Source: an uncultured virus (IMG/VR IMGVR_UViG_3300046536_000804)
Taxonomy: Duplodnaviria > Heunggongvirae > Uroviricota > Caudoviricetes
Reading direction: 5' to 3' (one strand)
DNA length: 35,470 bases
Virus record (IMG/VR): IMGVR_UViG_3300046536_000804
Part shown: piece after piece, positions 12,902 to 34,269 of the stretch
How positions within the stretch are numbered: the stretch's first letter is position 1
How the letters are laid out: every line of letters begins with the position of its first letter
The notes under the pieces: model-generated
What the model saw: the letters and a program-made list of their open reading frames with translations, nothing else
What the model was told of the DNA's origin: nothing
The model's database searches: none
Translations under genes and position numbers: made by a program

Positions 12902-12971
12902 TGTCAGTCCTTTCGTTGGTCAATGCGGACTTGTTTGGCTTCTTTGACCCGAAGCAAAGGGTTGTTGCCCG

Positions 12972-13364
12972 TCAGGGCAGTTGGTCGATCCCAACCGACG
13001 TACCGATGCCGTGCAGCTCTTTGCTGACCTGCTTGAGGCGGATCTTGGCAAAGACGTCCGGCAGGTTAATGCGATCCAGTTCAGTGTCGATAGCGGTCTC
13101 CGCATCGATACCCATTGCACCAGCCAGGGTCAGCACCGTAACGAGTGTGCCGGCCACTTCTTGCCAGGCGTCGCCGACCGGGCGGCTGAACACGTAATCC
13201 ACCAGTTGGTGGCAATCTTCCTTCGTCAGACCGGCCGCCTGACCGAGTTCGCAGGCTTCCTCGACCACGCGTCGGCCACGCTCTCGCGTATCCTTGACGA
13301 TCTGCTCGCCAAAGCAACGCGTGGCCCAGTTGAAGCACTCCGACTGAATCTCGTGCAGATGCAT
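12972..13364 (-). CDS. MazG-like (all-alpha NTP pyrophosphohydrolase) protein
   Basis: W...FG...ER..R..EEA.EL...QEVAG pattern. Confidence 0.65.
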   Translation of the reverse strand: MHLHEIQSECFNWATRCFGEQIVKDTRERGRRVVEEACELGQAAGLTKEDCHQLVDYVFSRPVGDAWQEVAGTLVTVLTLAGAMGIDAETAIDTELDRINLPDVFAKIRLKQVSKELHGIGTSVGIDQLP

Positions 13365-13423
13365 GATTCCTCCTGGTTGCTAGTCTCTATCCTCATTGAC
13401 CCGAGGGAGAGGGTTGTTAAACG

Positions 13424-13630
13424 CTACTCGTTGTCATCGAAGTACCAGTTGTTCTCGTTTTCTGGGCACTCCTCTCGCATCAAAGCTAAGCATCGCTTGA
13501 TACTCGGCTCGTCTGTGCCGTACGACTCTGTTTCGTGATAACAGCGCTGGCATACGGCTTGAACGCTAGGAATCAACAGGCCACTGTCGTTTTCGAGTTC
13601 AACATCAGAAATCTCAACTGGAACCCGCAT
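13424..13630 (-). CDS. small Cys-containing protein bracketed by 28-bp direct repeats
   Basis: GGAGG SD; CQRC...C...ECP. Confidence 0.7.
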   Translation of the reverse strand: MRVPVEISDVELENDSGLLIPSVQAVCQRCYHETESYGTDEPSIKRCLALMREECPENENNWYFDDNE

Positions 13631-13662
13631 AAAGCCTCCTCAGGGATATTTCCCGGCTGACC

Positions 13663-14286
13663 TCATTGACCCGAGGGAGAGGGTTGTTTTGCCTGGAGAC
13701 GACGCAGACGATCGATCTCTGCCGCAATCAGGGCGCCGGCGATGGTGAGCTTCTTGATATCGTCGAACGGGTACTTATCAGCGACGTGCGTGGCCCGCGC
13801 GGACGGCCACTGAGAGTCAGGCCATTCCTTGGCATAAGCTGCCGGCGTACCTTGATAACCATCAAGGATGAGCTGAGCACACAACCGCAACTGACCGGCC
13901 GTCTGCAGATCGTCACTGATCTCGGTGTAGCCCTTCTCCCAGATCTGTCGCATTCTCTCGGCCGAGATGAGATGAGTGCCGGATCGAAACGTGAGCACCG
14001 GCTTGTCGAGGAACGGCAGGTACGAGCGAATGATCGCCTGGTACGCCTTGACGACTGACTCGAAGGTGAGTGCATCGTCTTCAACGTCTTCGCAGTCGCC
14101 ATAACCGCTCTCGGAGTCCCAGACGACCGTGTCGTCGATGCTCATAGTGTCGGTGTAGCAGGAAGAAGTGACGTGGCAGACTGGCGTGGCCGGCTGGCCG
14201 CCTCGTTCGTCGAGCCAGGCCTGGACCTGGCTTTGTACCTCAGCGATCGTCTTTGACCGACCGCTTTCGTTTTCTGGCTTTGTCAT
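13663..14286 (-). CDS. phage-type protein with AER.RQ...AGALIAAEIDRL domain
   Basis: start MTKPEN; C-terminal domain pattern common in phage accessory genes. Confidence 0.65.
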   Translation of the reverse strand: MTKPENESGRSKTIAEVQSQVQAWLDERGGQPATPVCHVTSSCYTDTMSIDDTVVWDSESGYGDCEDVEDDALTFESVVKAYQAIIRSYLPFLDKPVLTFRSGTHLISAERMRQIWEKGYTEISDDLQTAGQLRLCAQLILDGYQGTPAAYAKEWPDSQWPSARATHVADKYPFDDIKKLTIAGALIAAEIDRLRRLQAKQPSPSGQ

Positions 14287-14689
14287 GGTATTTCCCTGTG
14301 TCTTCTCCAGACCACAAGAACTGCTTCTCGAACGCTCGAAGCAGCATCCGACCAATGACGGCTGCAGTCTTCTTGGGTTGCCGGAGGTGGTGTCGCATGA
14401 ATTCAATGGGCGACGCGAACACGAGTTCGCGATCCGCGGGCAGTTTCAGATCCGGGCTGCTTTTGGCCACGTTGGCCCGGTAGATCGCAGCACCGGCACA
14501 GAGGACAGGTTCGCCATCGCACAGCTTGGTATGGCACTCGATGTGAGTTTCAGAATGGAGCATGTTGCAGTATTCGGCCGGCGTCATATCTGCCAGCCAG
14601 CCTGGAAGCGCCTTGCGACGCATTGGACAGTCTTCGCAGGCTTTGGTGATCTGCTTGCCGACCTCGTTCGCCTCGTTGTAGGTTTTCAT
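14240..14689 (-). CDS. Cys-rich protein (DUF6283-like pattern)
   Basis: C..CP.R...CH...CAG. Confidence 0.55.
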   Translation of the reverse strand: MKTYNEANEVGKQITKACEDCPMRRKALPGWLADMTPAEYCNMLHSETHIECHTKLCDGEPVLCAGAAIYRANVAKSSPDLKLPADRELVFASPIEFMRHHLRQPKKTAAVIGRMLLRAFEKQFLWSGEDTGKYHDKARKRKRSVKDDR

Positions 14690-15045
14690 TCTGCATATTC
14701 CCTCTCGTCCAGGAGGCCCTCAATCTGGCCGTTGCAGTTATCACGGATCTCTGTAATGACCTCCAGGGCTTGAGGATCATCGAGATCCTTGATCAGCTCG
14801 TGGATCGCCCGGTAAACGGGCTCGGCGCTGATCTTGACCGGAACCGGGTTGGGCTTCTTTTTTGCCATCGGTGGGTATCCCATCATGTAACGAGTAAAGT
14901 CACAAACCGCGTCCGTCGCGGCTTTAACCATCGGATCTTCCTCATTGAGAAATGCAAAGATACCATCATGGAATTTCTTTTCGAAGTGGCTCGTCGCGAT
15001 ATACGCCGGCTGTCGCCTAGCTGGCCGTTTCTTCTTCTTCGCCAC
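14686..15045 (-). CDS. hypothetical protein
   Basis: ORF with AAGGAG SD. Confidence 0.55.
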   Translation of the reverse strand: MAKKKKRPARRQPAYIATSHFEKKFHDGIFAFLNEEDPMVKAATDAVCDFTRYMMGYPPMAKKKPNPVPVKISAEPVYRAIHELIKDLDDPQALEVITEIRDNCNGQIEGLLDEREYAE

Positions 15046-15054
15046 GTGTGCTCC

Positions 15055-15537
15055 TTATTTGCCAGGCCAGATAGGTAGAGCGACACCAACAGGAACATCA
15101 CGTGTCACTGCCTGACACTCGGCGGCAAGATCACGCCAGCAAGGCGACGCAGAAGCGAGAGCCACGGCTGTCTCCAGGTCTCGACGAAACTGATCGACCA
15201 ACTCATCCACCGTACCGAACGCCAACTGATGCTTGATAGGAATCTCATCTGGGTAGTAGCTTTGCTTACCTTCCAGATCGGTGGCCATCAGACTGAGACG
15301 CGACGAAGCCTCATCGGTCAGCGAGCATATTGCCGGCTTAACGAATAGAGCAGCGCCGATCGCCAGATAAACCCGCGGACCTGCCGACGTGGTTGTTGGT
15401 TTCGTAGCGTCGTTTGGTTCAGCAATGCCCAAAATTTCACGCATGTTCTTCCGAGACATTTCGGTCATAGCATCATCTGGATGCCTGGGCAGCTTCTCCA
15501 AAGCGTCGAAGAGCTCTTTGTTGATTTCATGGTTCAC
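15055..15537 (-). CDS. hypothetical protein
   Basis: 160-aa ORF. Confidence 0.6.
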   Translation of the reverse strand: MNHEINKELFDALEKLPRHPDDAMTEMSRKNMREILGIAEPNDATKPTTTSAGPRVYLAIGAALFVKPAICSLTDEASSRLSLMATDLEGKQSYYPDEIPIKHQLAFGTVDELVDQFRRDLETAVALASASPCWRDLAAECQAVTRDVPVGVALPIWPGK

Positions 15538-15584
15538 GGCTGGTGGATCCTTTCTTTTTGGCTTATTTCACCAGAAGCGAGGAG

Positions 15585-15920
15585 TTAGGCTAGTTCGGCT
15601 GACGTTGCAGGGCGACACCGGACCCGATGATGACAACTCGGGTCAAACACCGAATCCGCCTCCGCCACATCAGGATGTTCCCACCGAATAAACCTGCCGT
15701 CCTCACTCTCAGCCAGGCGAAACACATCGCCCTTCTTGATGTCGAGGAACTCCGCCTTGCGCCACACACGGCCACGGCGGATCTGAACGTCACGCATGCG
15801 GATCGGCGAGCCGAGTCGACTGTCGGCCGATGAAGGCGAGCAACACGTGGCGAGCCAGCACATGAAAGTGACTGGTGCACTCATCATCACAAGCAGGGCG
15901 AGAAAGATTCGTCGTGACAT
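15585..15920 (-). CDS. hypothetical protein with N-terminal hydrophobic helix
   Basis: start MSRRIFL with AGGAGG SD. Confidence 0.55.
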   Translation of the reverse strand: MSRRIFLALLVMMSAPVTFMCWLATCCSPSSADSRLGSPIRMRDVQIRRGRVWRKAEFLDIKKGDVFRLAESEDGRFIRWEHPDVAEADSVFDPSCHHRVRCRPATSAELA

Positions 15921-15963
15921 CGTGACCTCCTGATAGTTGGCCTCTTTCACCCGAGGCAAAGGG

Positions 15964-16203
15964 TCAGTCTTTCATGTACGGCTCTACCGCCACACTCAAC
16001 GCTTCATAGAAGGTGGCGAACGGGCCGAACCGATTCTCTTCGTCGCCTCGGTTATGCCAGTACCAGCCTTCCTCTCTCCACTCTCTCGGCTGCCCACCCC
16101 AGTACCAGCCAGAGCATTTGGCTCGCGTGAACTCTTTCTTCGTGTCCTCAGCAATGAGCATCATACGCTCAAGCTGAGTAAACACGACCGCAATGTTCGG
16201 CAT
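15964..16203 (-). CDS. hypothetical Trp-rich protein
   Basis: GWYW...GPF; stop overlaps pseudoknot element. Confidence 0.65.
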   Translation of the reverse strand: MPNIAVVFTQLERMMLIAEDTKKEFTRAKCSGWYWGGQPREWREEGWYWHNRGDEENRFGPFATFYEALSVAVEPYMKD

Positions 16204-16297
16204 TGGTCGCTCCCCTCTAGTTGGCCTCTTCGCGGAAAAAGAAACAGAGTTACCCTACAAAACATGATGCCGCACATTCGGCGTCATTTTAGCAAAG

Positions 16298-16507
16298 TCA
16301 TTGCCCGCCCGGCACATGGTGCCGGGCAACGAGAAAGTCGAGAACTCGATTGATCTGATCGTTCTCAAGTTCGTCGAGGATTGCATCGATCTTCTGCAGA
16401 GCCGCGATGTCCACAGCAACTTGCTTGCGCTTTCGCGGCTTCTGTTCACCAGGGGCGTCGGCCTCGTCCTCGACAGGCTCGACGACATTGACGGGTTCTT
16501 CAGGCAC
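16298..16507 (-). CDS. hypothetical protein
   Basis: AGGAG SD. Confidence 0.55.
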   Translation of the reverse strand: MPEEPVNVVEPVEDEADAPGEQKPRKRKQVAVDIAALQKIDAILDELENDQINRVLDFLVARHHVPGGQ

Positions 16508-16559
16508 GTGAAACTCCTAGGGTTAGATCATTGACCGGATCAACACGGATTGGACACAA

Positions 16560-16742
16560 TCAAGAAGCAGGCTGGTCTGGTAACTGAACGCGTTCTTGCA
16601 TGGCCTCGGTATGGCAGGCGATAGTGATTTCAGCCTTGACCAGTTCGACTGCGGCCGACAACTGCTCCGATTGATTGGTCAGCGGGTACAACTCCTTGAC
16701 GATGTTGGTACAGTCCTTGAAGAAGTCGACTGCGGTTTTCAT
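16560..16742 (-). CDS. hypothetical protein
   Basis: start MKTAVD with GAGGAG SD. Confidence 0.55.
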   Translation of the reverse strand: MKTAVDFFKDCTNIVKELYPLTNQSEQLSAAVELVKAEITIACHTEAMQERVQLPDQPAS

Positions 16743-16806
16743 GGCGTCTCCTCGGGTTAGGTGGAAAGTGGTTTTTTGGCGTCGCTGTTTTCGCCCAGCG
16801 GCAGGC

Positions 16807-17376
16807 TCAAGCACTATCGTGGTCCAGGAACTTCTGTTTGCCAGTTGGCGACAGGGCAATACGACTGCTCTCGTTGAGCAGAAACCAGTCACACTGAGCG
16901 ACTGCGGCCTCGGCTCGTCTAATGTCGCACTCAATTGCGAGGCACACCTCAACGAAGACATCTGAGCGGACGCCTTGCGTTTCAAGACGGTTGGCGAGGT
17001 GCCGACCGATGGCAACCGCCAATTGCTCGGGCGTACGGTTGTCCTCCTCCTTTTCCCGGCTCTTCTTCACCGGCGGGGACTTGGACATGGCTTTCGTCTT
17101 CTTACCCGACGAAGAGGGTTTAGTTACTTCCAGTTCGGAATCGTCGTCATCATCCTCACCATTGAGGACCGGCAGAGGTCTGCCGCGACGATCGAGGCAT
17201 TCCTCCTCAACTGGCTCCGATATCGGGGTATTCAACAACTGCTGTTCAATCATCGTCAGCGCGCTATCAACAAGCTCCACGTTCAACTTGATCATCTCGA
17301 TCGACGCACGCAGCGACTGGATCGCAATTCTGACACTGATGGCTGACTCATTGACCGGACGATTACACTTCGGCAT
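16807..17376 (-). CDS. hypothetical protein (coiled coil, acidic/basic linker, possible wHTH C-terminus)
   Basis: 189-aa ORF; carries an internal pseudoknot element at ~17091-17120. Confidence 0.65.
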   Translation of the reverse strand: MPKCNRPVNESAISVRIAIQSLRASIEMIKLNVELVDSALTMIEQQLLNTPISEPVEEECLDRRGRPLPVLNGEDDDDDSELEVTKPSSSGKKTKAMSKSPPVKKSREKEEDNRTPEQLAVAIGRHLANRLETQGVRSDVFVEVCLAIECDIRRAEAAVAQCDWFLLNESSRIALSPTGKQKFLDHDSA

Positions 17377-18067
17377 GGGGGTCTTCCTCGGGTTTGATTG
17401 GCCTGGCAGTTATCTGCCCGGCAGGGTTGACGAACCAGTGGGAGTCCCAATACTTGTTCGGGAACGAGCAAAAGCGGACCTCCACTGGTTTCCCTTTCCA
17501 GACGCCGAGAATGATCAACGACGGGCCATCCTCGGCAACGATATCGGCACCCGTGCAGAAGTCGATGAACGTTCGATCCTCTGTATCGGGCGGCCAAGCA
17601 TTCAAGACCTTGTGGGCGTTTATCGCATCGATTGCATAACCGAAATAGGCCTGCGTGCCGTCACTGGCGCCGCCGACAAACTCAACGACACCTGGCCTGA
17701 TGATGAGGATCGCCTCTTCGGTAGTTGCTTCACCGCTCCAGTCGACCGGAAAACCGGCGTCGATGGATCCTTCCATGAGGGCGCCGAAGAGACTACCGAG
17801 ATACTCCTCGTCATCGATTGGCTGCCCGTCCAGAACAGGGTAGTGGCAGCCCTCTTCGTCGCCACAGCCGTCCTCGTCCTCATACTCCTCGTCGTCTTCA
17901 CGATCCTGTTCGGCTGAGGCCTGCCGTTCGGGCAAGCCAGGATCGTGAGGACAGCCGCCACAGGTACGCGGCTTGGTGCTGAAGCGAAAGCTTACCGCAT
18001 GCGGATCTACCGAGCAACAGTCGTTGCCAAAAAGTCGACGCAGCCAACCCCAGATGGTCCTCATCAT
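17363..18067 (-). CDS. hypothetical acidic protein
   Basis: 234-aa ORF. Confidence 0.6.
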   Translation of the reverse strand: MMRTIWGWLRRLFGNDCCSVDPHAVSFRFSTKPRTCGGCPHDPGLPERQASAEQDREDDEEYEDEDGCGDEEGCHYPVLDGQPIDDEEYLGSLFGALMEGSIDAGFPVDWSGEATTEEAILIIRPGVVEFVGGASDGTQAYFGYAIDAINAHKVLNAWPPDTEDRTFIDFCTGADIVAEDGPSLIILGVWKGKPVEVRFCSFPNKYWDSHWFVNPAGQITARPIKPEEDPHAEV

Positions 18068-18147
18068 CGTGACTCCGGAAGAAAGGTGGTGTCCACGTAT
18101 CGTACAGAAAAGCCAGGTCAGCGACCGGGTCAGTTTTTCGACACCGG

Positions 18148-18594
18148 TTAGTCGAACAGATCACTGCTGCTGCCAAAGTTTAGCCTTCCCAAGAAGGTTG
18201 TGGTCAGTGCGGCCACGTTGAGCGCGGGCGTCACCAGGCCCATCGTGGATGAGAACGGAAGGTAGAGAGATTCCGACGTGTCGGACGGTGGCACTACCCG
18301 ACTGCCCCACTTCGCCACCGGGATGACATAGACCTCGAAGTTCGCGTCTGGATCGATGGATCGAATTCTGCAACCGAGCTTGAACAGGATCTCCCTGTCG
18401 AAGACCGGTTGATTGTCCCGGTATAAACCGAAGTCGATGACGACGGTCGATTCCTTGCCTGGAAGCGACACCTTCGAAGTGCGGCCAATGCTGAGCTGGT
18501 AGGTCTTTCCAGACAGCAGCGTCATGGCCTTGATCAGCGGGGCAACCCGCACGTCGAACAACCGCGTAACACGAACGGTGGCGAACTCTTGCAT
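18148..18594 (-). CDS. hypothetical protein
   Basis: AGGAG SD. Confidence 0.6.
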   Translation of the reverse strand: MQEFATVRVTRLFDVRVAPLIKAMTLLSGKTYQLSIGRTSKVSLPGKESTVVIDFGLYRDNQPVFDREILFKLGCRIRSIDPDANFEVYVIPVAKWGSRVVPPSDTSESLYLPFSSTMGLVTPALNVAALTTTFLGRLNFGSSSDLFD

Positions 18595-18631
18595 TCAAAT
18601 CTCCTGGGAATGGATGACATCGCTGGCGCCT

Positions 18632-19096
18632 TTAACCCGGCGCAGGGGGTTGGAGTTGTTGCTCGAGCGATAACAGAGCTTCAATAGGCAGATCATCGAC
18701 ATGGTCAGCCCTGAACTGCCCATAACGAATCTCGTAGAACTGAATCTGCCCAGTCTTCCAGATGTACTTGATGACCCCGCAGATCGGAAGACAAATGTTG
18801 GCGTACCGCTGCTCGTCCTCCTGTTTGGCCAGAAGAGCCTTAACGCTAACGATCAGATCCTTACGCAGCAAGGCAATTATCATCCCTGGCACGTCAGCGT
18901 CCGGACTGTCGAGCGGGATCGTGCTGTTGACCTCATTGAGACGGACAACTTCAACCCCCTCTTTCTCACTGACGTTCTTGAGACTGCCGACAGTAGCTTT
19001 CGCCTCAGCTATGACGGCTGCATCGGGACCGTCCGGCACCTGAACAACGATCTGGTGCGTAACGATTTGGAAGTCGGCAAAGTAAAACGTTCGCAT
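18632..19096 (-). CDS. hypothetical protein bracketed by ~30-bp direct repeats
   Basis: AAGGAG SD; stop lies inside pseudoknot element. Confidence 0.65.
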   Translation of the reverse strand: MRTFYFADFQIVTHQIVVQVPDGPDAAVIAEAKATVGSLKNVSEKEGVEVVRLNEVNSTIPLDSPDADVPGMIIALLRKDLIVSVKALLAKQEDEQRYANICLPICGVIKYIWKTGQIQFYEIRYGQFRADHVDDLPIEALLSLEQQLQPPAPG

Positions 19097-19163
19097 GGTT
19101 CTCCTTTGGTTGAAAGGATGGGATTCGCTGGCGCCTTTGACCCGACGCAGGGGGGATGATGAT

Positions 19164-20502: not shown

Positions 20503-20560
20503 GTGATCTCCTTGGTGATTGGTCTTCATTCCGCTGTCGTCTTTGACCCGACGCAGAGGG

Positions 20561-22357
20561 TTATTTGATATCGGGAATACTGCCAATCGGGACTGCTGGT
20601 GGTTGCGTCGGAGCACAGTTGCCGCGAAGGGCACTCGCCAGTTGCTCGAGCATTTCGATCGGCACTGTCAGGACGATTTTGGATTCACGGTCCGTCGTTA
20701 CGGAGATCGTGAAAGGCTCGGGTGCGTCTGCGTAGATCGGCAGGATTCGCGTGATCGGCATGCTCTGAAGCAGCATCTGCATCACCGGCCGAACGGAGTC
20801 TCTCGATACCGAGATATCGAACACGGCATGCCACTCACCGTCCAGATGACCGTGGGTGACCTTGGCCATCGGGATCATGTCGATCGCCTTGGCCAGGCCG
20901 CTCAACGAGCCTTTGACGGCCGGCTTCTTCTCGACCTTCGGTTCCTCGACCTCTGGAGTCTTCTCGACAATGGGCGCCTCGATCACTGGGCTGACCGGAG
21001 GCTTGGCGAAAGGAATAGAGATCGCCGGCGGTTCAGCAACCGCCGTTTCGAGAATCGGCGGTTTCGTCTCTATCGGCACCGGCTTCGGTAGCGCCTCTGG
21101 GAACTTCATCTTCACCTTCGTCGCATAGTGGATTGCCTCGGCCGCGGAGCCGAGATCGCGTAACTTGGCCGTGAAGCCGACCTGGTGCGGTTCCTGTTTG
21201 ATAATTCGCTTCACAGCCTCACGAGAGAGCAACGACGGCTGCCTGGCGATAGCCAACGTGATGATCTGTTCGTTCAGCGTTGGCATGGTGGTGGAGAACA
21301 CCACATCGTAGTCACCACCACAAGACGTCGTCTGGATCAGATTGGATTCGACGCCAGGCATGCCGAGCACTGCCTCACGTAACAGACTCTTGCACTTGAG
21401 TGATGCGATCGCCTGCGTCCCGTTGATGGTCAACGTGATGGCTTCGATGAACGTTGTCTGCATCGCATGGGTGAGAAGCAGCTCCCAGCGATCTTCCTGG
21501 GCTCGAAACGTACAACCCGGCAACAGCTTGATCGCCTCGAGCATCTTGGTAGCTGTGATCACCGCGTTCGTGCCGACGCGGATGAATACCCGCACGTTGG
21601 GCTCGTCCGGTGCGTTGCCTGGCGTCTCGACCAGGTAGACCACACGCAGACCGACCAGATCCTCCAACGCCTTGACCAGCGTTGAATATTTGATCCGTGC
21701 TCCCATGATCCCGAACGCCGAATCGAGGTTTGCATTTGCTTCTGGCGTAAAGGTTTGCGACCCGAACTGAGTAAGCATATGCTGAAACGGCGCCGCCGAT
21801 CCGAACGGCATCCTCAACGAGAACTGCCTGGTGCTGTTCGGGATCATGGTGAACTTCACGTAATGGAAGAACGACGAGACGTCCTTGATAAAGTTCAGAA
21901 GCTTGACGTCGTCTTCCGGCACCTGGCAGTGCGCGTCGATGTAAACCTTTTCCTCGGAGATGATGTCCGCAGCACACCGAATCACCGTCAGACGCGGCAG
22001 GGTGAGTAGCGACGCTCGCAGACCGTCTATGGTGTTCTGCGCCCGCTTATCAGTTACACGGTAAGCGAGCAGCCTGGTCATCTCCGCCATCCTGTCGTAT
22101 GGCACGATGACCCAGATGCCGATCGTCATGAGCTTGCCAATCTCGACCTGCAGACCGAGCTTGGTCAGAACGCCGATGAGATCGAGGTCGGTCAGCAGCG
22201 TGTGCTCGGTTCGCTGCAATTGGATGAGCGCATTGTCGGGATTGATGTGGTTCTTCACGACGAACATGGCCTTGGTCGTCAGCTCGCGATTGAGCAAGAT
22301 CAAGGCCGCCAGATCCGCCTTGGCGTGGCCGTAGCCGGTGGTGAATGGTCCGTACAT
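20561..22357 (-). CDS. large hypothetical multi-domain protein
   Basis: 598-aa ORF; N-terminus MYGPF..GY resembles MYDPF..GY of 23089..24486. Confidence 0.75.
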   Translation of the reverse strand: MYGPFTTGYGHAKADLAALILLNRELTTKAMFVVKNHINPDNALIQLQRTEHTLLTDLDLIGVLTKLGLQVEIGKLMTIGIWVIVPYDRMAEMTRLLAYRVTDKRAQNTIDGLRASLLTLPRLTVIRCAADIISEEKVYIDAHCQVPEDDVKLLNFIKDVSSFFHYVKFTMIPNSTRQFSLRMPFGSAAPFQHMLTQFGSQTFTPEANANLDSAFGIMGARIKYSTLVKALEDLVGLRVVYLVETPGNAPDEPNVRVFIRVGTNAVITATKMLEAIKLLPGCTFRAQEDRWELLLTHAMQTTFIEAITLTINGTQAIASLKCKSLLREAVLGMPGVESNLIQTTSCGGDYDVVFSTTMPTLNEQIITLAIARQPSLLSREAVKRIIKQEPHQVGFTAKLRDLGSAAEAIHYATKVKMKFPEALPKPVPIETKPPILETAVAEPPAISIPFAKPPVSPVIEAPIVEKTPEVEEPKVEKKPAVKGSLSGLAKAIDMIPMAKVTHGHLDGEWHAVFDISVSRDSVRPVMQMLLQSMPITRILPIYADAPEPFTISVTTDRESKIVLTVPIEMLEQLASALRGNCAPTQPPAVPIGSIPDIK

Positions 22358-22435
22358 AGATGGTCCTCAGGTGGTGATGGAATTGAGAGAGAGCAGATCG
22401 CCGGCGTCTTTGACCCGACGAGGAGGGTTGGACTC

Positions 22436-22990: not shown

Positions 22991-23088
22991 GGGACCTCCG
23001 TTCATTCGTTTTGAAGTTTGAATATCGGGATATCTTGCCGGCCACACGTCTTCATCTTTGACCCGATGAGAAGGGTTATCGAACACGA

Positions 23089-26010: not shown

Positions 26011-26177
26011 TCTGTCTCTTTGACCCGAGACGAAGGGTTTACCTGGATCGAGTAATCGTTCGTCTTTCACCCGACGACGAGGGTCGAACCCGGCCATGTG
26101 GGCTTCACCATTGACCCGGTGAGCGGGGTTAACGGCACCCTCCGTAGCGTTCGTCTTTCGCCCGACGACGAGGGTTA
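26011..26177 (-). repeat. array of 4 pseudoknot elements (period 46/45/46)
   Basis: (A/G)CCC-N8-GGGT cores at 26023, 26069, 26114, 26160. Confidence 0.9.
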
Positions 26178-26538: not shown

Positions 26539-26712
26539 CTGCACTGATTGAGTCCAGGCAGAGACTTAAGTCGGCAGAATCAACGGTCCACGTCGCTCTG
26601 TTTTAGCCCAGGCGAAGGCTTGAAGAACCAGTCACTCTGGCCGAGATTACCGCGACTCCGTAGTTCACCAACGTATACGCCGTCTTCGTCTTTCACCCGA
26701 CGAGAAGGGTTA
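26539..26712 (-). repeat. cluster of 3 pseudoknot elements
   Basis: cores AGTC-N8-GACT 26551, AGCC-N8-GGCT 26605, ACCC-N8-GGGT 26695. Confidence 0.85.
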
Positions 26713-27783: not shown

Positions 27784-27825
27784 GTGAATTCTCCTTCGTC
27801 GCTCTGTTTTAGCCCAGGCGAAGGC

Positions 27826-30648
27826 TTAGCTGCCCAGCAACCTACCGAACCGAGATCGCTGGCCTTCGATGTCGATGCCCGATGCGGCCGCTCCGGCACG
27901 TTGAAACATCGACGGTTGGTATTCCTGGACCTGTTTGAGGAACGCACGTCGGCGCTCTGGGGTGAGCTGACTGATCACCGGCTTGATCTCCTGATCGGAG
28001 GCTCGGATCAGCGCCTGGATGTTGGGATGGCCTGATGTATCTACAAACCGGTTGGCGGTTCTCTCGACCGGTCCTTTCGGTCTTAACGCATTCTGAATGG
28101 CTGGCATGATCCGGCCAGGTTGACCACCGGATAGACCGTAGGCCGCGGTGCCCAGACCGCCGACGCCAACGCCGAGATTGAGAGCGGTCGAGCTCTCCGG
28201 CCGGGTCTGATTGAGTGCGGCCAGCAGGGCTGCAGTGCCTCCACCGATCGCCATCGCTTTGTGCTTGGGCTCCAGGCCGTGCCAGTGGTTGGTGAAGTCG
28301 TCCAGGACGCCGGACATCTTGACAGCCGCACCAGCCCAATGCTTGAGTTTATTCAGTGTTGAGGGCTGCTCGTAGCTCGTCGGGCCGAACACGCGTTTCT
28401 GTGTGAGGCTGCCACCGCCGTAACCAAGACCTGCACCCAGGACGGCGCCGCCTAACTCGGCAACAGGACGAGCATGTAAGCCTAGGTTCTTTCGTAGATA
28501 AGACAGTCGTCCAACATCGTGAAATGCTCGGCCTGTACGACCACCGAGGAAAGCTCCACCACCGGCAATCACGCCCTTGTAAAGGCCACGCAAAGCACCT
28601 TCACGAGCTCCACGCTTTGGGTTTTCCGTGTCGTTCTGCTTGCCACCAGCCGCATTGGCCAAAGTGCTCAGGCCAGCCATGTAGGCCGCATCGCCTGGCC
28701 CGGTCACGTTGGCTATGTAATTGCGGCTGGCTGTTGGGTCGTAATATCGCTCACCCGGGATGACTTTGACCTTCGGACTGACATGCCGAGGATGGTGCAC
28801 CATCGCCTTGCTAGGAGCCTTGGCAACCTTCCCGAACAACCGCTCCCGCCACGTGGGCTCTGGCTTCTTCGTCAGAGCGTTGGCAGCCATCATTCCTCCA
28901 ACGCCCAGACCAGCACCGCCAAGGCCTGCCATCGCAAAGCCTGGGGCTCGCGACAGCATCGAGACCGGTTGGGCGATCGGGATCGCTGACTGTGGCTTCG
29001 GCGATACCGCGGTATCGGCAAGTCCCGGCATGGTTGCCTGAGCTGGACCGCCACGTCCGGCCAGCATCGTTTGCTGACCCGGCAGGGCTGCAGTCGGGTA
29101 ATCAAGCTCGAATGGGCTCGGAGACGGCGGCCGCACCTTACTCTTGGGCATCATCAGTGTCTCTGCCTCGGCCGGCGGAGGCGAGAACGGCTTGCTCTTG
29201 AGAATCGGGCTCTTGGCCTTCATCGGCCTCTTGGGCGCCGTGGCCGCACCTTTCACCTTGCCAAGCAACGGTTCGATGTGGAAGGCCTGATGCTCGAAGC
29301 TCTGCGGTTGCGGGGGTTGCTCGCCACCGTACAGTCCACCGCCCGGCAGGGCCATCGGCAACACCATGCTGGCGCCGGTTAAGCCGCCAAGCACGCCGAG
29401 CTGACCGCCCATGCCACCGCTGCTCCAGAACGGGGTAGGTTGGCCGTGGATGGCGTTGTGATGCACGAAGGCCTCACCCACGTTCTTGTTGGGCGTGGCG
29501 TTGATGGCGTCCATTGCCTGGGTACGACCACCAAAACGACCGAGAGCTGCAGAAGCATCAGCTCGGGCGGTTCCTGGCACCCTGTTCATGATGTGCTGTA
29601 CGTCCATGCCAGCCCGCCTCGCTTGATTGGCAGCCTGCTGAGCAACCTGTTGAGCGGGGCGTTGCATGGCCGTGCCGGCCTCGGCAACGGCACCGCTCAC
29701 GCGTCCACCGAACAACGAGGGCACCTTGCTGGCAATACCGGTCAAGGCCTTGCCACCCCAGTTGAGTAATGGCCGAACGATCGGCGCCTTGGCAAGGGCC
29801 GGCAGTATCCTCGTAGCGGCTGCAATGGTCGGGCCGACCCAGGCTTCTTTGGCGATGCTCGCGTCCGCTCGTTTTAGCCCGAGGGAAGGCTTAGTGAGGA
29901 GTCCTTCGGGAAGGATGAAGGATGCGGTGACTTCTTTGCCGACCTGCAGGCCGACGTGACCACCGAGGCCTCCGAGCAGCCCACCACCCAACAGGGCTGC
30001 GTTCTGATGCATCACTTTATCTCCGTGACCCAGCGGCATGTCAAGGTGACCACCCTTGCTGAGCTTCTTCACACCTTTATGGCCACCGACGGCACCGATA
30101 CCAAGGCCCAGGCCAGCCAAGGCGCCACGAGTAGCACCGCCTCGTTCACCGCGGTAACGACCAACAGCCTCACCGATCAGGCCGCCACCGATCGTGGTAG
30201 CGGCCGGGATCGCAAGCATGCCGGCACCGGCGGTCTTCGTTGCTGATTGCCGTTCCGCATCTTTGACCCGATGGGAAGGGTTTATGCGACCGACATGGGC
30301 TGCCTCTTTGACCCGAGGAGCAAGGTTTTCCTCCTCTACGCTGGCAGCATCATTAACCCGATGAGCAGGGTTCGCGTTATCGATCTCTGCTGCCTCTTTG
30401 ACCTGAGGAGCAAGGTTGACCTGAGTCGCTTTGGACGAACAGGCTGCATCATTCACCCGATGAGCAGGGTTTGCCGCGCATCTCAAGGCCGCTTCTTTGA
30501 CCCGAAGGGCAGGGTCGGCACCCACGAACTCGTCGGCCAGCTCGGGGAATAGAGCACAGGCGGATTTGACCGCCTGCGTGAGCTGAGCTGCCGACAGATT
30601 GCGTTCTTCGCAGCGAGCCAGGAACGCAGTGACCATTGGTGTGTTCAT
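27826..30648 (-). CDS. large Gly-zipper/low-complexity protein (possible virion-internal polyprotein)
   Basis: open frame >900 aa; probable start MNTPMV; Gly-zipper hydrophobic segments; contains 7 pseudoknot elements. Confidence 0.7.
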   Translation of the reverse strand: MNTPMVTAFLARCEERNLSAAQLTQAVKSACALFPELADEFVGADPALRVKEAALRCAANPAHRVNDAACSSKATQVNLAPQVKEAAEIDNANPAHRVNDAASVEEENLAPRVKEAAHVGRINPSHRVKDAERQSATKTAGAGMLAIPAATTIGGGLIGEAVGRYRGERGGATRGALAGLGLGIGAVGGHKGVKKLSKGGHLDMPLGHGDKVMHQNAALLGGGLLGGLGGHVGLQVGKEVTASFILPEGLLTKPSLGLKRADASIAKEAWVGPTIAAATRILPALAKAPIVRPLLNWGGKALTGIASKVPSLFGGRVSGAVAEAGTAMQRPAQQVAQQAANQARRAGMDVQHIMNRVPGTARADASAALGRFGGRTQAMDAINATPNKNVGEAFVHHNAIHGQPTPFWSSGGMGGQLGVLGGLTGASMVLPMALPGGGLYGGEQPPQPQSFEHQAFHIEPLLGKVKGAATAPKRPMKAKSPILKSKPFSPPPAEAETLMMPKSKVRPPSPSPFELDYPTAALPGQQTMLAGRGGPAQATMPGLADTAVSPKPQSAIPIAQPVSMLSRAPGFAMAGLGGAGLGVGGMMAANALTKKPEPTWRERLFGKVAKAPSKAMVHHPRHVSPKVKVIPGERYYDPTASRNYIANVTGPGDAAYMAGLSTLANAAGGKQNDTENPKRGAREGALRGLYKGVIAGGGAFLGGRTGRAFHDVGRLSYLRKNLGLHARPVAELGGAVLGAGLGYGGGSLTQKRVFGPTSYEQPSTLNKLKHWAGAAVKMSGVLDDFTNHWHGLEPKHKAMAIGGGTAALLAALNQTRPESSTALNLGVGVGGLGTAAYGLSGGQPGRIMPAIQNALRPKGPVERTANRFVDTSGHPNIQALIRASDQEIKPVISQLTPERRRAFLKQVQEYQPSMFQRAGAAASGIDIEGQRSRFGRLLGS
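30254..30517 (-). repeat. in-frame array of 6 pseudoknot elements (period 45,45,45,54,45)
   Basis: cores at 30266, 30311, 30356, 30401, 30455, 30500; translate as NP.HRV(K/N)(D/E)A-type repeats. Confidence 0.9.
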
Positions 30649-30664
30649 AGAAGTGTCCCATGTA

Positions 30665-30867
30665 CCTTCGTCATTCACCCGACGAGGAGGGTTAAGGTGG
30701 CAATCATTTTTCTGTGATCTTTGACCCGATCCAGAGGGTTCACATAGAAAAATGTACTGCAAGATGCGTTACATCACGATCCCCGGCGTGGTAGTAGGCA
30801 GAGCTTGCAGCACTTGGTTTGCGGATGGTCAGCACCGGCCTCGTCATTCACCCGACGGGCAGGGTTG
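30665..30867 (-). repeat. 3 pseudoknot elements upstream of the large ORF
   Basis: cores at 30677, 30724, 30850. Confidence 0.85.
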
Positions 30868-30899
30868 GTTCGCCAAGGGTATCATCCCGCCTTGAGGCA

Positions 30900-31055
30900 T
30901 CACAACATTGGCGGTCTGTCACGCCAGGTTTCGACCTTCAACATCTTCTCGATTTCTTCGCGAACATATTGAATTCGCTTGTCAGCCTTTGCCTGGTCTG
31001 CGACAGGAAGGCGATCTCTTTCTTCAATCAGTAAGTCAATGTAAAATTCGGCCAT
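30900..31055 (-). CDS. 51-aa hypothetical protein (not in ORF track)
   Basis: AGGAGG SD; MAEFYIDLLIEERDRLPVADQAKADKRIQYVREEIEKMLKVETWRDRPPML. Confidence 0.55.
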   Translation of the reverse strand: MAEFYIDLLIEERDRLPVADQAKADKRIQYVREEIEKMLKVETWRDRPPML

Positions 31056-31070
31056 ACTTCCTCCTGTGCA

Positions 31071-31197
31071 CCTACGTCTTTCGCCCGACGAGGAGGGTTG
31101 TAGTTACGTCTCGCCATCACGGTCCTCATCTTTAACCCGATGGGCAGGGTTAGACGATGCCATGGCTTCTTCGTCTTTAACCCGACGAGAAGGGTCA
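31071..31197 (-). repeat. array of 3 pseudoknot elements
   Basis: cores at 31083, 31135, 31180. Confidence 0.88.
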
Positions 31198-31224
31198 TGC
31201 ACAGCTTACGGCACGCAATTAAGC

Positions 31225-31500
31225 CTAATTCGCGTCGCTTCGATCAATCGTCGGTAATAAAGGCTTGCCGGTCTCTTTGAGGATGGTTTCAGCGTGCTCT
31301 CTCATGAGATCCCTCCAGGCACTAACGATTCTCTTTTGGGCATCACCAACCATGAAAAGAACGCCAATTGTAAACGGTTGGTCATTCACCGTTATGATAG
31401 CTTCGTAGCACAACTTAGCTCGATCAATGTTGATGTGAAAGCCAACATTGAAGCAGTCGTCGTTCGGGACCGACTCGGGTGTACCCGATTCTGCAGCCAT
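31225..31500 (-). CDS. hypothetical protein, 'LGT...W' paralog family (distant copy)
   Basis: start MAAESG with AAGGAG SD; YEAII...IGVL...AWRDLMREH. Confidence 0.6.
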   Translation of the reverse strand: MAAESGTPESVPNDDCFNVGFHINIDRAKLCYEAIITVNDQPFTIGVLFMVGDAQKRIVSAWRDLMREHAETILKETGKPLLPTIDRSDAN

Positions 31501-31523
31501 ACTTCTCCTTGTTTTTAGCCACC

Positions 31524-33485
31524 TCACCCCGCCGGGGCTGGTGGCGGTGTCGGGCTCGGCATTACCCCAGGATTGGGTGCCGGATTGGTTGCCCCTGCAT
31601 TCGTCGGCGGTGCTGGCGACCAAGGCGTTGCACCACCGGCGCCGCTACCGAAGATCGGCGATACGTTGGTCGGAGACGGTGCCGGGCTGCCCCCTGGAGC
31701 ACCACCAGGCTGGACACCGAACATCTGACCCATAGCCTGAGTCCGCATCCGAGCTTCCGCGATGTTCTGTTGCCGACGCAGTTGACGATCTTCCTCGTTC
31801 TCCGCAGCGTACCTCGGCAGTTGGGCCTCGAGCTGTTGCTCGCGTTGACTGCCGATACCTGTGCGCTGCGCCATTTGACGTTGCTGGCCAGCCCACTGGT
31901 GATACGCAGTCGCGTCGCGGTTGTAACGGTCGCGGGCCATGCGATATTGACGCCACTGGTCAGAGGTATTCCACCCAAGACCGAACACACCACCCTCGCC
32001 AGAACCTAGCTGGCGATCACCGAAGCTGATCGGGGTGCTTTGCCCGGTTCGTGGATCCAGAACACTGTCAGTTGCACCACCTTCTCTTGAGGTGTTGTTG
32101 GCCAGTTGCTGAAGCTCGTGGAACCGTCGTTCGAGGTCAGGTGCGGACACCGGAGCCCCGATGCCCGACGTAATAGCGTTCTGCCGCTGCTCGGATCGCT
32201 CCCGTAGTTGATTGAGTTCCTGACGCGTGCGGTCTTCGTCCGATCGAGCTTCGGTGCCGAACACCGGGCTGACACCAGACAATGGCGACATGCCGCCACC
32301 GAAACCGTAGCGAGCGCCAGGGAACATCCCCATGCCGCCCATCATGCTCGGGTGCATGCCGGGGTACATTCCCATGCCGATACCAGGGTATCCACCACGA
32401 CCGACGTACGGATTGCCACGCGGGGATGACCGAGGCATGACGCCACCGCCACCACTCGACGGATCGTGCTGCCGAAGCATCTGCAGGGCGCGACTGGTAG
32501 TAGTGTCCAGGCTGTTGCGCCGGGCGGCAATCTGCGCCGGGCTGCCGCCAGAGCCTTCGATACGAGCAACTTCTTGGTCGTAGCGGGCACGCAGTTGGTC
32601 CTCGGTCATTGGCATCTGGGACATGCCGCCACCCATGCCACCCATGTGCTGAGCCGGGAACTGCATCGGAGGGTAGCCCATGCCGCCCATGCCGTATTGG
32701 GCCAGGTGCGGCGCCATGAGCATGCCAGGGCCTCCATAGTTGCCCATTGCTCGGGCGTAGGGGTTGGCCTGCTTCTCTGCTACCGGATTGGTTCGGATCG
32801 TGGTGGTTTTGTGCATCTTCTTGATGCGATCCAGGAGCGTTGGCTGCTTGTTCTCGAGATCGAGTGAAGTCGGCATCACGCCCATCGCAGACGACTGCTT
32901 CATCGCCAGCGGGGCGCCCATCGCCGCCGGTGGCCTCGAAGAGGCTTTGGCGGACAGCGGCTTCTGCGGCTGGTTGTTCGTGGTGACCAATGGCTTGGCC
33001 GGCGGTGCCAGGTTGGCTGGCATCGGGTTCGGACCAACCGTTGGGGATGCAGATGCTGGGGGAGTGGGCTGAGCCGTGTTGGGAGCCTGAGTCGGCATCA
33101 CGCCGTCGAAGGCGAGCTTGTGGCTGCGGTGAAGCCAGGTGCGATTGCGTGCAATGCGATCGTCCTCTTCTTCTTTCCAGGACGGCTGTCCCATCAGCTT
33201 CTTGGTGCCTTTGAAACCTGCATAACCACCGACGCCAACCCCACCGAGAGTCGCCAGGAGGGTCAGAATCTTCGCCTTGTCGGACGCTGGGTTCATACCA
33301 AGGGCGCCGAGGCCAGCCTGGGCACCCATGTGACCGGCAACCCAGCCGCCGATCATACCCAGGTCGGTGCCAAGACCGGCAGCCAAACCACGACCGGCAC
33401 CTTCCATACGATGACCTGAAGGCGCCCGAGCGGCGCCAATGATCGGACCGGCAATGGTGCCAAGATCTGCTTGTTTGATCGTCAT
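31524..33485 (-). CDS. large Gly-zipper plus G/M/P/Q low-complexity protein
   Basis: start MTIKQAD with AGGAG SD; N-terminal Gly-zipper helices. Confidence 0.75.
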   Translation of the reverse strand: MTIKQADLGTIAGPIIGAARAPSGHRMEGAGRGLAAGLGTDLGMIGGWVAGHMGAQAGLGALGMNPASDKAKILTLLATLGGVGVGGYAGFKGTKKLMGQPSWKEEEDDRIARNRTWLHRSHKLAFDGVMPTQAPNTAQPTPPASASPTVGPNPMPANLAPPAKPLVTTNNQPQKPLSAKASSRPPAAMGAPLAMKQSSAMGVMPTSLDLENKQPTLLDRIKKMHKTTTIRTNPVAEKQANPYARAMGNYGGPGMLMAPHLAQYGMGGMGYPPMQFPAQHMGGMGGGMSQMPMTEDQLRARYDQEVARIEGSGGSPAQIAARRNSLDTTTSRALQMLRQHDPSSGGGGVMPRSSPRGNPYVGRGGYPGIGMGMYPGMHPSMMGGMGMFPGARYGFGGGMSPLSGVSPVFGTEARSDEDRTRQELNQLRERSEQRQNAITSGIGAPVSAPDLERRFHELQQLANNTSREGGATDSVLDPRTGQSTPISFGDRQLGSGEGGVFGLGWNTSDQWRQYRMARDRYNRDATAYHQWAGQQRQMAQRTGIGSQREQQLEAQLPRYAAENEEDRQLRRQQNIAEARMRTQAMGQMFGVQPGGAPGGSPAPSPTNVSPIFGSGAGGATPWSPAPPTNAGATNPAPNPGVMPSPTPPPAPAG

Positions 33486-33513
33486 TTCGTTCTCCTGGGG
33501 GATGATGATCCAG

Positions 33514-33741
33514 TCGTCCTGTATAAGCCCAGGCGAAGGCATTGCTTAATTGTATCGATCCAGCGTGTCGTCGCACCGTTTGAGCCCGGTGGAGGGCATT
33601 GAGTCTGTCACCTTCTCGTCGCACTGTATAAGCCCAGGCGAAGGCTCGGTGAATCGTCGTGCTGTCTCATCGTTTGAGCCCGATGGAAGGCTTTGGCGAA
33701 TCGTTGCTCTGTCGTCCTGTATCAGCCCAGGCGAAGGCTTA
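33514..33741 (-). repeat. array of 5 pseudoknot elements (AGCC/GGC type; period 57,48,46,47)
   Basis: cores at 33526, 33583, 33631, 33677, 33724. Confidence 0.9.
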
Positions 33742-34179
33742 GGCATTACCCGTGTGGCAGACGCTGAAGATCTCGCCACCCAGAATGTCGATCGTCTGAC
33801 CCGGCGAGAGGCTACCGTCCATGTTGGTCGTCTTGTTCCGCCACACGATCGTAGGCTCGCCCTTCATCTCGGCAGCCACCACGACCTCGTTGTAGTTGGT
33901 GCTGCCATTCATCATCTCGACCTGCTTACCGTTGATCGTGACCATCACCGAAGTTCGCGGCATCCTGGTCATGAAGTAATCGGATGCTTCAACGTGCCAG
34001 GGGCACGCTTCGTAGTAGATCGGCTGGGCTGGAGTGTCGAACTCCTGCTCGAACGGCTTCTTGAGAACGAACACCTGACTGCCCCACATGCACACCTCGG
34101 GCATCAGTCGGAACGGCAACATGATGAACTCGTGGACGAGTTGGCCATCACGGGTCAGTAGTTTGGCGTTGGGTTGCAT
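33739..34179 (-). CDS. protein with C-terminal multi-ubiquitin-like (beta-grasp) domain
   Basis: V.VTINGK......NYNEVV.AA...T.V.W.....GSL.PGQT..I..G.IF.V..TGNA-stop, resembling bacterial Multi_ubiq domains. Confidence 0.6.
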   Translation of the reverse strand: MQPNAKLLTRDGQLVHEFIMLPFRLMPEVCMWGSQVFVLKKPFEQEFDTPAQPIYYEACPWHVEASDYFMTRMPRTSVMVTINGKQVEMMNGSTNYNEVVVAAEMKGEPTIVWRNKTTNMDGSLSPGQTIDILGGEIFSVCHTGNA

Positions 34180-34194
34180 GGTGTCTCCCCCTGG

Positions 34195-34269
34195 TTGTCC
34201 TGTTTAAGCCCAGGCAAAGGCTCGGTAGAACTACTTTGGCTGCACTGTATTAGCCCAGGCAGAGGCTTA
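34195..34269 (-). repeat. pair of pseudoknot elements (period 45)
   Basis: cores at 34207 and 34252. Confidence 0.88.

Follow-up and report, generated by a model that had tools for sequence, protein, structure and literature searches.

A dispersed family of 41 short pseudoknot repeats, all in the same orientation, is carried by a 35,470-base stretch of phage DNA (the window; ~56% G+C) that forms part of a 159,470-base contig of an uncultured virus of the Caudoviricetes (IMG/VR record IMGVR_UViG_3300046536_000804). The family is real and apparently undescribed; its existence, both of its helices, its orientation, its placement, its history of duplication and the insertion of one array relative to homologous proteins are directly established. 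Gene-end repeats in the form of plain hairpins are known already from bacteria (REP, SMAG), as are promoter/stem-loop cassettes from phages, and no pseudoknot occurring as a dispersed repeat at gene ends was found in Rfam or by full-text searches of the literature. As to function, we tentatively prefer a REP-like RNA barrier at gene boundaries, a kind of gene-end punctuation that spreads by duplication. The whole case comes from one orphan contig.

In the minus-strand sense, the element begins with a leading A, followed by the 4-nucleotide (nt) 5' strand of stem 1 (S1; ACCC or AGCC), a single nucleotide (loop 1, L1), a 7-nt loop strand, the 4-nt 3' strand of stem 1 (S1'; GGGU or GGCU), a 4-nt linker of the form NAAW (loop 3, L3) and an 8-nt tail, which pairs with the loop strand to give stem 2 (S2) and leaves one base bulged. 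The resulting knot measures 28-32 nt and combines a GC-rich S1 of 4 base pairs (bp) with a 1-nt L1, a variable 7-bp S2, no L2 and an A-rich 4-nt L3 that resembles the corresponding loop of minor-groove triplex pseudoknots. Alignment of the 41 copies with MAFFT is gap-free over 37 columns. The L1 base is U in 36/41 copies and C in 5/41, L3 has A at its second position in 41/41, and the bulge is conserved in position while its base varies (A15, C14, G9, U3). The 41 copies comprise 28 different loop strands, every one of them matched by its tail, which means that continued selection for pairing would be needed at each site. Copies of the ACCC and AGCC subtypes differ at coupled positions, namely S1 and the closing pair of S2, and the two subtypes cluster by region. 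Conservation is confined to the element itself: the conserved block covers only positions -3 to +28 relative to S1, thus starting 3 nt ahead of S1 and ending 1 nt past the tail, and beside it nothing is conserved from 40 nt upstream to 80 nt downstream of S1, an interval that also holds no conserved -35/-10 sequences. Promoter-like sites are found at shuffle level (6 versus a mean of 6.7) and terminator-like sites lie within two standard deviations of the shuffles (25 versus a mean of 17.0, standard deviation 4.5); with scans at or near shuffle level and no conserved flanks, a promoter or terminator role was rejected, as was that of a programmed frameshift stimulator, for which no conserved slippery sequence is present at -4 to -12.

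An earlier reading of this DNA, made from the letters alone (the sequence-only reading), had listed 41 starts and proposed that both helices covary. The pattern is present at all 41 on the minus strand, and the covariation is borne out by the gap-free alignment, in which 93.3% of 451 cells are standard pairs. For the whole pseudoknot the mean of 500 shuffles is 67.1%, with 0/500 reaching the observed value, and sliding the partners by 1-3 columns drops pairing to 30-40%. Taken separately, S1 is paired in 95.1% of cells as against 82.8% in shuffles and S2 in 92.3% as against 58.2% (0/500 for either helix). Changes on both sides are seen in 7/7 S2 pairs and 3/4 S1 pairs, and one S2 pair appears in four Watson-Crick types (CG 16, GC 11, AU 8, UA 5, with one unpaired cell). 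In S1, the switch from ACCC/GGGU to AGCC/GGCU covers 12 copies and may be a single event; three further compensated changes are singletons, AGTC/GACT in e26551, ACCT/AGGT in e30401 and CCG/CGG in e16534 (names as in Table 1), and for e30401 the U.G intermediate is found in a neighbouring copy. With 0/500 shuffles attaining the observed pairing, a chance resemblance is most improbable.

Since the copies are related to each other, changes were also counted on a minimum spanning tree built from 38 copies; e15570, e16792 and e17104 had been dropped for register problems. With kinship allowed for in this way, S2 shows 34 double changes versus 9 that break a pair, in addition to one wobble change and four changes between two unpaired states. 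For S1 the tree gives three double changes, two wobble changes and seven breaks, and most of the mismatched S1 cells belong to the terminal A-U pair. A covariance model was then built from the 41-copy alignment and used to scan both strands with filters off. The copies score 24-46 bits and the next match 10.7 bits; the plus strand, 14-12900 and 34272-35470 are free of matches. As the 41 copies match the model by construction, what is informative here is the gap in score together with the absence of further matches, and the uniform orientation claimed earlier is thereby upheld (41/41 on the minus, i.e. coding, strand and none on the plus strand). A descriptor of structure alone returns 63 minus-strand versus 69 plus-strand matches, with a background of about 30 on each strand, and was rejected as evidence for that reason; topology by itself is not significant, so that the evidence lies in the conserved frame and the covariation. 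A partial copy proposed at the edge of the window is plausible, its 13 bases matching the complement of the loop plus that of S1 in e17104.

Two interleaved helices that both covary point to a folded single strand rather than to a protein site in duplex DNA. The sequence-only reading went further and took G-U pairs to show that the minus strand is the one that folds, as RNA or as single-stranded DNA. That argument is not decisive: after removal of register artefacts three U.G cells are genuine, as are four C.A or A.C cells, which would be wobbles on the opposite strand. Composition favours the minus sense, as the 5' strand of S2 is 77% pyrimidine and the tail 73% purine, an asymmetry that a duplex site does not need. 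Geometry points the same way. Established pseudoknot geometry lets a 1-nt loop span the deep groove of a stem 2 of 6-7 bp and a 4-nt A-rich loop the shallow groove of a 4-bp stem 1. In the complementary strand, a 1-nt loop would have to bridge the shallow groove of a stem of 7 bp, which is not possible, and only the minus-sense knot is therefore sterically feasible. The coding signal of the window lies on the minus strand, with tightly packed genes, and because all genes of the window share that strand, orientation does not separate RNA from one particular DNA strand.

The features that most narrow down a function were missing from the sequence-only reading, the placement of the copies relative to genes among them. 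Between genes lie 33/41 copies, with one to five per spacer. In 19 junctions the first copy is preceded by a gene of 48 codons or more. At 16 of them the upstream stop codon is located between 13 nt before S1 and 21 nt inside the element, and at eight of those 16 the final base of the TAA or TGA doubles as the opening A of S1; the remaining three gaps measure 30, 35 and 80 nt. A T[AG]A triplet in the register overlapping S1 (T at -2) is present in 16/41 copies, of which only eight close a real gene, so that the stop looks like a part of the element's own consensus. On the downstream side, the next start follows the last copy of a spacer by 14-43 nt and in most cases has its own strong Shine-Dalgarno sequence, while a four-copy array is followed by a tRNA gene instead of an open reading frame (ORF). 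In the same half of the window, about 12 junctions lack a copy, and these are mostly overlapping or abutting genes. The individual copies are listed in Table 1.

Table 1. Pseudoknot copies and associated features of the window, with covariance-model scores for the copies (the tRNA score is from the Rfam scan)
Feature	Coordinates	Strand	Score (bits)	Remarks
Probable partial copy	1..13	-		Cut by window edge; likeness to e17104
e12947, ACCC type	12935..12963	-	43.1	10 nt 3' of stop of ORF 12972-13364
e13399, ACCC type	13387..13415	-	37.2	One S2 mismatch; 10 nt 3' of stop of ORF 13424-13630
e13669, ACCC type	13657..13685	-	38.1	Stop of ORF 13663-14406 inside element
e15570, degenerate variant	15558..15586	-	26.6	TAA of upstream 129-codon ORF ends on S1 first base
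e15949, ACCC type	15937..15965	-	42.3	TGA of upstream 97-codon ORF ends on S1 first base
e16534	16522..16550	-	27.6	Variant; compensated S1 (CCG/CGG)
e16792, irregular AGCC-like	16780..16808	-	24.1	TGA of 201-codon ORF ends on S1 first base
e17104, ACCC type	17091..17120	-	33.3	5-nt L3; inside ORF 16807-17376 (189-aa protein)
e18635, ACCC type	18623..18651	-	40.1	Stop of ORF 18632-19096 inside element
e19140, ACCC type	19128..19156	-	32.8	S1 first pair broken, one S2 U.G; 9 nt 3' of stop of ORF 19164-19745
e20546, ACCC type	20534..20562	-	45.3	TAA of 598-aa ORF ends on S1 first base
e22413, ACCC type	22401..22429	-	41.6	8 nt 3' of stop of ORF 22436-23110
e23061, ACCC type	23049..23077	-	43.7	13 nt 3' of stop of ORF 23089-24486
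tRNA gene	25819-25952	-	39.4	Rfam scan; 58 nt 3' of four-copy array
e26023	26011..26039	-	36.6	Last of four-copy array before tRNA gene
e26069	26057..26085	-	36.4	In four-copy array
e26114	26102..26130	-	38.8	In four-copy array
e26160	26148..26176	-	38.9	First of four-copy array; TAA of ORF 26175-26507 ends on S1 first base
e26551, AGCC subtype	26539..26567	-	30.7	Compensated S1 (AGTC/GACT)
e26605, AGCC type	26593..26621	-	36.7	31 nt identical to e27811; source-run assembly breaks here
e26695, ACCC type	26683..26711	-	45.6	80 nt 3' of sigma-factor gene
e27811, AGCC type	27799..27827	-	39.9	TAA of 940-aa ORF ends on S1 first base
940-aa ORF	27826..30648	-		Longest ORF; 7 copies in frame; homologs without repeat array
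e29876, AGCC type	29864..29892	-	37.3	In frame within 940-aa ORF
e30266	30254..30282	-	41.0	Intragenic array copy
e30311	30299..30327	-	40.4	Intragenic array copy; S1 U.G
e30356	30344..30372	-	35.5	Intragenic array copy
e30401	30389..30417	-	36.7	Intragenic array copy; compensated S1 (ACCT/AGGT)
e30455	30443..30471	-	40.6	Intragenic array copy
e30500	30488..30516	-	40.8	First intragenic array copy, directly 3' of conserved N-terminal domain
e30677	30665..30693	-	39.1	17 nt 5' of 940-aa ORF start
e30724, ACCC type	30712..30740	-	39.8	
e30850, ACCC type	30838..30866	-	40.9	35 nt 3' of 48-codon ORF
e31083	31071..31099	-	34.5	15 nt 5' of AGGAGG-ATG start
e31135	31123..31151	-	38.7	Array copy
e31180	31168..31196	-	39.6	30 nt 3' of stop of ORF 31225-31623
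e33526, AGCC subtype	33514..33542	-	35.4	S1 first pair T.T; last of five-copy array; 28 nt 5' of Shine-Dalgarno-ATG
e33583, AGCC subtype	33571..33599	-	30.2	
e33631, AGCC subtype	33619..33647	-	34.3	
e33677, AGCC subtype	33665..33693	-	33.2	
e33724, AGCC subtype	33712..33740	-	39.6	First of five-copy array; TAA of 146-aa ORF ends on S1 first base
e34207, AGCC subtype	34195..34223	-	39.7	15 nt 5' of ATG
e34252, AGCC subtype	34240..34268	-	37.2	TAA of 400-aa ORF ends on S1 first base

Eight copies lie within ORFs. The element has one reading frame that is free of stops in every copy, and in that frame seven copies are located inside the 940-aa ORF, with e17104 lying in another frame inside the 189-aa ORF; both host ORFs are stored as single proteins in the protein collection. 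Six of the copies within the 940-aa ORF form an array (30266-30500) with periods of 45, 45, 45, 54 and 45 nt that reads as peptide repeats, while the non-coding arrays have periods of 46, 45, 46, 57, 48, 46, 47, 52, 45, 47, 45 and 54 nt. A HMMER search of 1.84 billion representatives yielded homologs of the 940-aa protein (P0005, P0006 and P0007), which share its first ~45 and last ~160 residues and have unrelated sequence at the position of the array. The array is an insertion relative to these homologs, and it consequently sits in a genuine gene, in a variable linker right after a conserved N-terminal domain. The intragenic copies are paired as well as the others, and their differences are compensated (e30500 versus e30455). 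It could be argued that the family is at bottom a peptide-coding repeat (NPxxRVxD-like), considering that one frame is stop-free in every copy and that the six-copy array reads as peptide repeats. This is extremely improbable, as most copies lie outside ORFs, neighbouring ORFs run past copies or adjoin them in each of the three frames, and the covarying partners fall into different codons with the amino acid changing freely; flanking ORFs in all frames and partners in different codons together mean that a peptide reading cannot explain the family. With regard to the N-terminal ~45-residue module itself (30513-30648, minus strand), it is conserved among homologs that, beyond it, have just the C-terminal ~160 residues in common, and it also occurs elsewhere as a stand-alone 62-aa protein (P0038/P0041, 64% identity).

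Neighbouring copies resemble each other, and so do the spacers within arrays, from which it follows that units of ~46 nt have been duplicated. Contigs of the source run that were compared with 14350-34300 gave 25 aligning records, 20 of which align only partly; nine joints connect one element position to another, and loose contig ends at element positions carry unrelated flanks. Such joints and flanks show that other contigs of the sample contain further copies, which could belong to the rest of the same genome or to relatives. Apart from this, e26605 and e27811 are identical over 31 nt and form direct repeats flanking a sigma-70-like gene together with a small upstream ORF, with the source assembly breaking at both; so arranged, the repeats would permit cassette-like gain or loss by recombination.

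This history could be taken to mean that the element acts at the level of DNA, as a mobile or duplicative, selfish repeat or as a nicking, recombination or replication site folding in single-stranded DNA, with the structure preserved for the sake of its own propagation and any effect on RNA being secondary. We regard this as unlikely, although the following points speak for it: at least three separate intragenic placements (e17104, e29876 and the array 30266-30500), all in stop-free frames, an array that is missing from homologous proteins, tandem arrays with similar spacers and duplication of a ~46-nt unit, a regional distribution with a 12.9-kb desert, identical 31-nt copies on either side of the sigma-factor gene and a built-in T[AG]A that in half of its 16 occurrences closes no real gene. 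Uniform orientation can also arise by insertion into one replication strand, as known from IS200/IS605 elements. Small repeats fused to or inside ORFs have moreover been described (PMC3184786). On the other hand, domain searches of the 35-kb window of the 159-kb contig revealed no transposase, HUH or recombinase, and the family is present in none of ~185,000 species-representative genomes. REP families keep the sequence of their stem, unlike the 28 distinct loop strands with matching tails seen here, and the purine/pyrimidine asymmetry and the A-rich L3 fit an RNA tertiary structure better. How the element spreads and what it does are in any case separate questions, and an element that multiplies by duplication may have acquired a use as well.

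If the copies indeed act as barriers at gene boundaries, the knot would be carried in the sense strand of long messages presumably transcribed from the common coding strand, and would have to fold in vivo. Cutting of such a message in a spacer or at the neighbouring tRNA would leave one or several knots at the new 3' end, which could slow exonucleases arriving from that side, so that the upstream cistron would be stabilised or insulated as it is by REP/SMAG hairpins. The number of copies would tune the effect, and the family would spread by local and tandem duplication, occasionally landing in tolerant in-frame positions of ORFs. A barrier of this kind is consistent with the close tie to stop codons, with the clusters and with the array that precedes the tRNA gene. 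It fits poorly with the modest stability of the fold and the well-kept intragenic copies. The two helices are each stable by themselves (mean energies, for the helices alone, of -4.4 kcal/mol for S1 and -6.3 kcal/mol for S2), and nested folding recovers the S2 hairpin including its bulge, at ordinary energies of -6 to -11 kcal/mol with z-scores of -0.2 to -2.2 versus shuffles, which makes the strength of a barrier doubtful.

Several further observations weigh against a barrier. The eight intragenic copies keep their pairing where a barrier at a gene end makes no sense. A stop codon overlapping S1 obliges each ribosome that terminates there to unfold the knot. Among the copy-free junctions, two possess spacers (51 and 80 nt), and no copy occurs in 12.9 kb of comparable small genes (14-12900). 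Finally, with all genes of the window on one strand, an orientation given by transcription is inseparable from one given by replication.

The barrier reading draws on the likeness to the REP, BIME and SMAG repeats, which are likewise short, GC-rich, folded and found in intercistronic spacers just 3' of genes. REP/SMAG elements of ~35 nt occur singly or in clusters, stabilise upstream transcripts to a degree that varies with copy number and are in some cases fused to or located inside ORFs (Delihas 2011, PMC3184786). The element differs in being a pseudoknot rather than a plain palindrome and in having a stem that varies with compensation rather than a conserved one. It further occurs in a single orientation without inverted pairs, has no GTAG-type 5' tetranucleotide and comes with no RAYT seen in the window; its carrier is a phage, and no bacterial genome among the ~185,000 species representatives has the family. 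REPs located within 15 nt of a stop codon are known to stall ribosomes and to lower expression of the upstream gene.

A counterpart in size and position is the operator of T4 gene 32, in which a pseudoknot of ~28 nt located 5' of the region of the ribosome-binding site (RBS) serves as nucleation site and overlaps the upstream ORF with its 5' part (PMC535899). It is possibly the sole viral pseudoknot engaged in translational autoregulation, according to a review (PMC3014915). The sequence-only reading had assigned the element to this topology; the 28-nt size and the position do match. The gene 32 knot has a 1-nt L1 over a 7-bp S2. The gene 32 knots of T4, T2 and RB69 also share with the element two coaxial stems and an intercistronic position ahead of the RBS, with the 5' part reaching into the upstream ORF. 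They differ from it in being a single copy of fixed sequence, bound by gp32 and followed by an unstructured, UUAAA/UAAA-rich operator of more than 40 nt, whereas the element is present in 41 copies with a variable S2 and is followed by spacers of 14-43 nt that are neither conserved nor rich in A/U repeats.

By analogy, the knots might form a translational operator regulon, in which each would be the nucleation or binding site of a phage RNA-binding protein that occludes the RBS in a gp32-like manner at about 20 junctions, with the ACCC and AGCC subtypes perhaps being read by two proteins or marking two temporal classes. A phage or host protein as reader, with the bulge as a putative point of recognition or cleavage, had been suggested by the sequence-only reading. 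We consider such a regulon unlikely. The match to the gene 32 operator speaks for it, as do the strong Shine-Dalgarno-ATG starts that the last copies precede by 14-43 nt, the several copies that precede the largest genes and the combination of a variable stem, a bulge conserved in position and a conserved loop, which is typical of hairpins read by proteins; the subtypes, differing at coupled positions and clustering by region, would suit two readers. What speaks against it is the register, which is fixed relative to the upstream stop and not to the downstream start, together with the four-copy array preceding a tRNA gene and not an ORF, intragenic copies far from any start and spacers without UUAAA/UAAA repeats. 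In addition, no RNA-binding or SSB-like (gp32-like) protein was recognised among the ~65 ORFs scanned in the window.

A block in the opposite direction has also been considered. The exoribonuclease-resistant RNA of the coremin type (xrRNA-C) and its Watson-Crick variant (xrRNA-WCC), found in plant and picorna-like RNA viruses, consist of a 3-4-bp hairpin whose loop pairs with sequence on its 3' side, a bridging nucleotide and an A-rich stretch, and act as a directional roadblock (PMC6546385, PMC10321173); xrRNA-WCC/coremin also blocks scanning ribosomes and stimulates frameshifting (PMC10321173). A bacterial counterpart of such exoribonuclease-resistant or frameshift-type pseudoknots might stop RNase J-type enzymes moving 5' to 3', or slow ribosomes or helicases, and would thereby protect or insulate the downstream cistron. 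The layout of the element does resemble the Watson-Crick coremin variant (PMC10321173, PMC6546385), the likeness in outline lying in the short first hairpin, the loop pairing downstream, the single bridging base and the A-rich stretch. In its details it departs: coremin has either a YGAD tetraloop or a 4-nt loop that forms a 3-bp S2, the element an 8-nt loop and a 7-bp S2; coremin has a conserved 10-nt spacer and essential A16-A20, the element only the conserved 4-nt NAAW linker; and coremin has a second hairpin downstream, eukaryotic hosts and Xrn1 as the enzyme, whereas no conserved sequence follows the tail of the element. As neither of these loop arrangements nor the 10-nt spacer is matched, and as no conserved slippery sequence lies upstream, a role of this kind appears decidedly improbable.

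Three other systems were compared. The PeSL cassettes of T4-like phages combine a plain stem-loop with a sigma-70-type -35/N17/-10 promoter (PMC4122927). Like them, the element is a repeated intergenic motif among small orphan genes of a large phage and is tied to gene shuffling, with direct repeats flanking genes (here the sigma-factor gene); unlike them, it has no promoter consensus attached and is a pseudoknot instead of a stem-loop. Type III antitoxin (ToxI-like) arrays are made of tandem units of ~36-45 nt, each of which is a pseudoknot, and are known in phages as mimics. Their repeats are near-identical and stand beside a ToxN/AbiQ-type toxin gene, whereas the units of the present family are diverged, mostly solitary and dispersed, and this candidate was rejected, there being no ToxN/AbiQ/CptN/TenpN protein according to PADLOC among the 32 ORFs in 11.6-35.5 kb. 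Integron attC sites were likewise dropped, since few copies have a core-site-like heptamer (judged by eye) and the elements are far shorter than attC.

Searches for relatives agree with the sequence-only reading, which did not recognise the element as a described family. There is no Rfam match: with Rfam 15 at gathering thresholds the whole window yields the tRNA alone, and a scan of 12000-35470 at E<=5 gives no match on any element. Among IMG/VR viral contigs, the element pattern has one chance match, in a low-GC coding region. In metagenome contigs it occurs at no fewer than 121 loci; among the matches listed (81) all are single, with none having more than one descriptor match, and at least three loci (two distinct sequences) have a perfect S2, versus ~6 expected by chance. 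In the genome contigs of ~185,000 GTDB species representatives, the tandem two-copy pattern is found 0 times, and the strict single-copy pattern gives ten scattered singles across phyla, with no true match. A search for protein-based relatives produced no loci in viral contigs, phages or plasmids. As side observations, three of the metagenome singles, at 1272-1300 (+) of L006, in L090 and at 1542-1570 (+) of L033, fit the full pseudoknot with a perfect 7-bp S2 and bulge, which is within chance expectation, and L033 looks eukaryote-like. In a contig of a giant-virus metagenome-assembled genome (L123, ~5000-5060, plus strand), three tandem 21-nt units share a string resembling S1' and linker without sharing the fold; these were judged unrelated.

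If the fold is read in vivo, the element would be a very small portable module that sets the fate of single cistrons in polycistronic messages, and the 41 natural variants already chart which of its positions tolerate change. A more far-reaching version, which we hold to be rather doubtful, would be a dedicated RNA punctuation code, i.e. a minimal pseudoknot in two subtypes that is read by a phage-encoded protein or nuclease, or is a bacterial analogue of viral exonuclease-resistant RNA, and that cuts, shields or silences cistrons while propagating itself and seeding peptide repeats. For the intragenic array, the picture of an element invading a gene and becoming a peptide repeat in a variable linker offers a concrete route by which new protein sequence can arise from an RNA structure that is selfish or regulatory.

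The carrier is read as a large, uncultured, orphan phage of the rhizosphere. The run containing the DNA of the window is a single rhizosphere DNA metagenome, which is probably its source. Most ORFs of the window are orphans; the 598-aa protein has no homolog other than itself among 5.8 billion clusters, the 189-aa protein none other than itself in the protein collection, and several ORFs match PHROG families without assigned function. The sigma-70-family factor is encoded at 26790-27743 (-). Between e27811 and this gene, and overlapping the listed start of the latter, lies a 29-codon ORF (27694-27783, minus strand) with a strong AAGGAG-ATG start. In the tRNA gene, 79 nt stand in place of the 17-nt anticodon-arm region and ARAGORN makes no call, so that the gene could be intron-bearing or degenerate. 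In the part of the window free of copies, seven tandem paralogs of phrog_572 (function unassigned; E 1e-17 to 1e-22) occupy 6136-9351 (-), without spacers and without the element. Finally, residues 96-185 of the 193-aa ORF at 19164-19745 (-) match PADLOC model PD-T7-1 (E 3e-12), which places a domain of a defence system in a phage gene.

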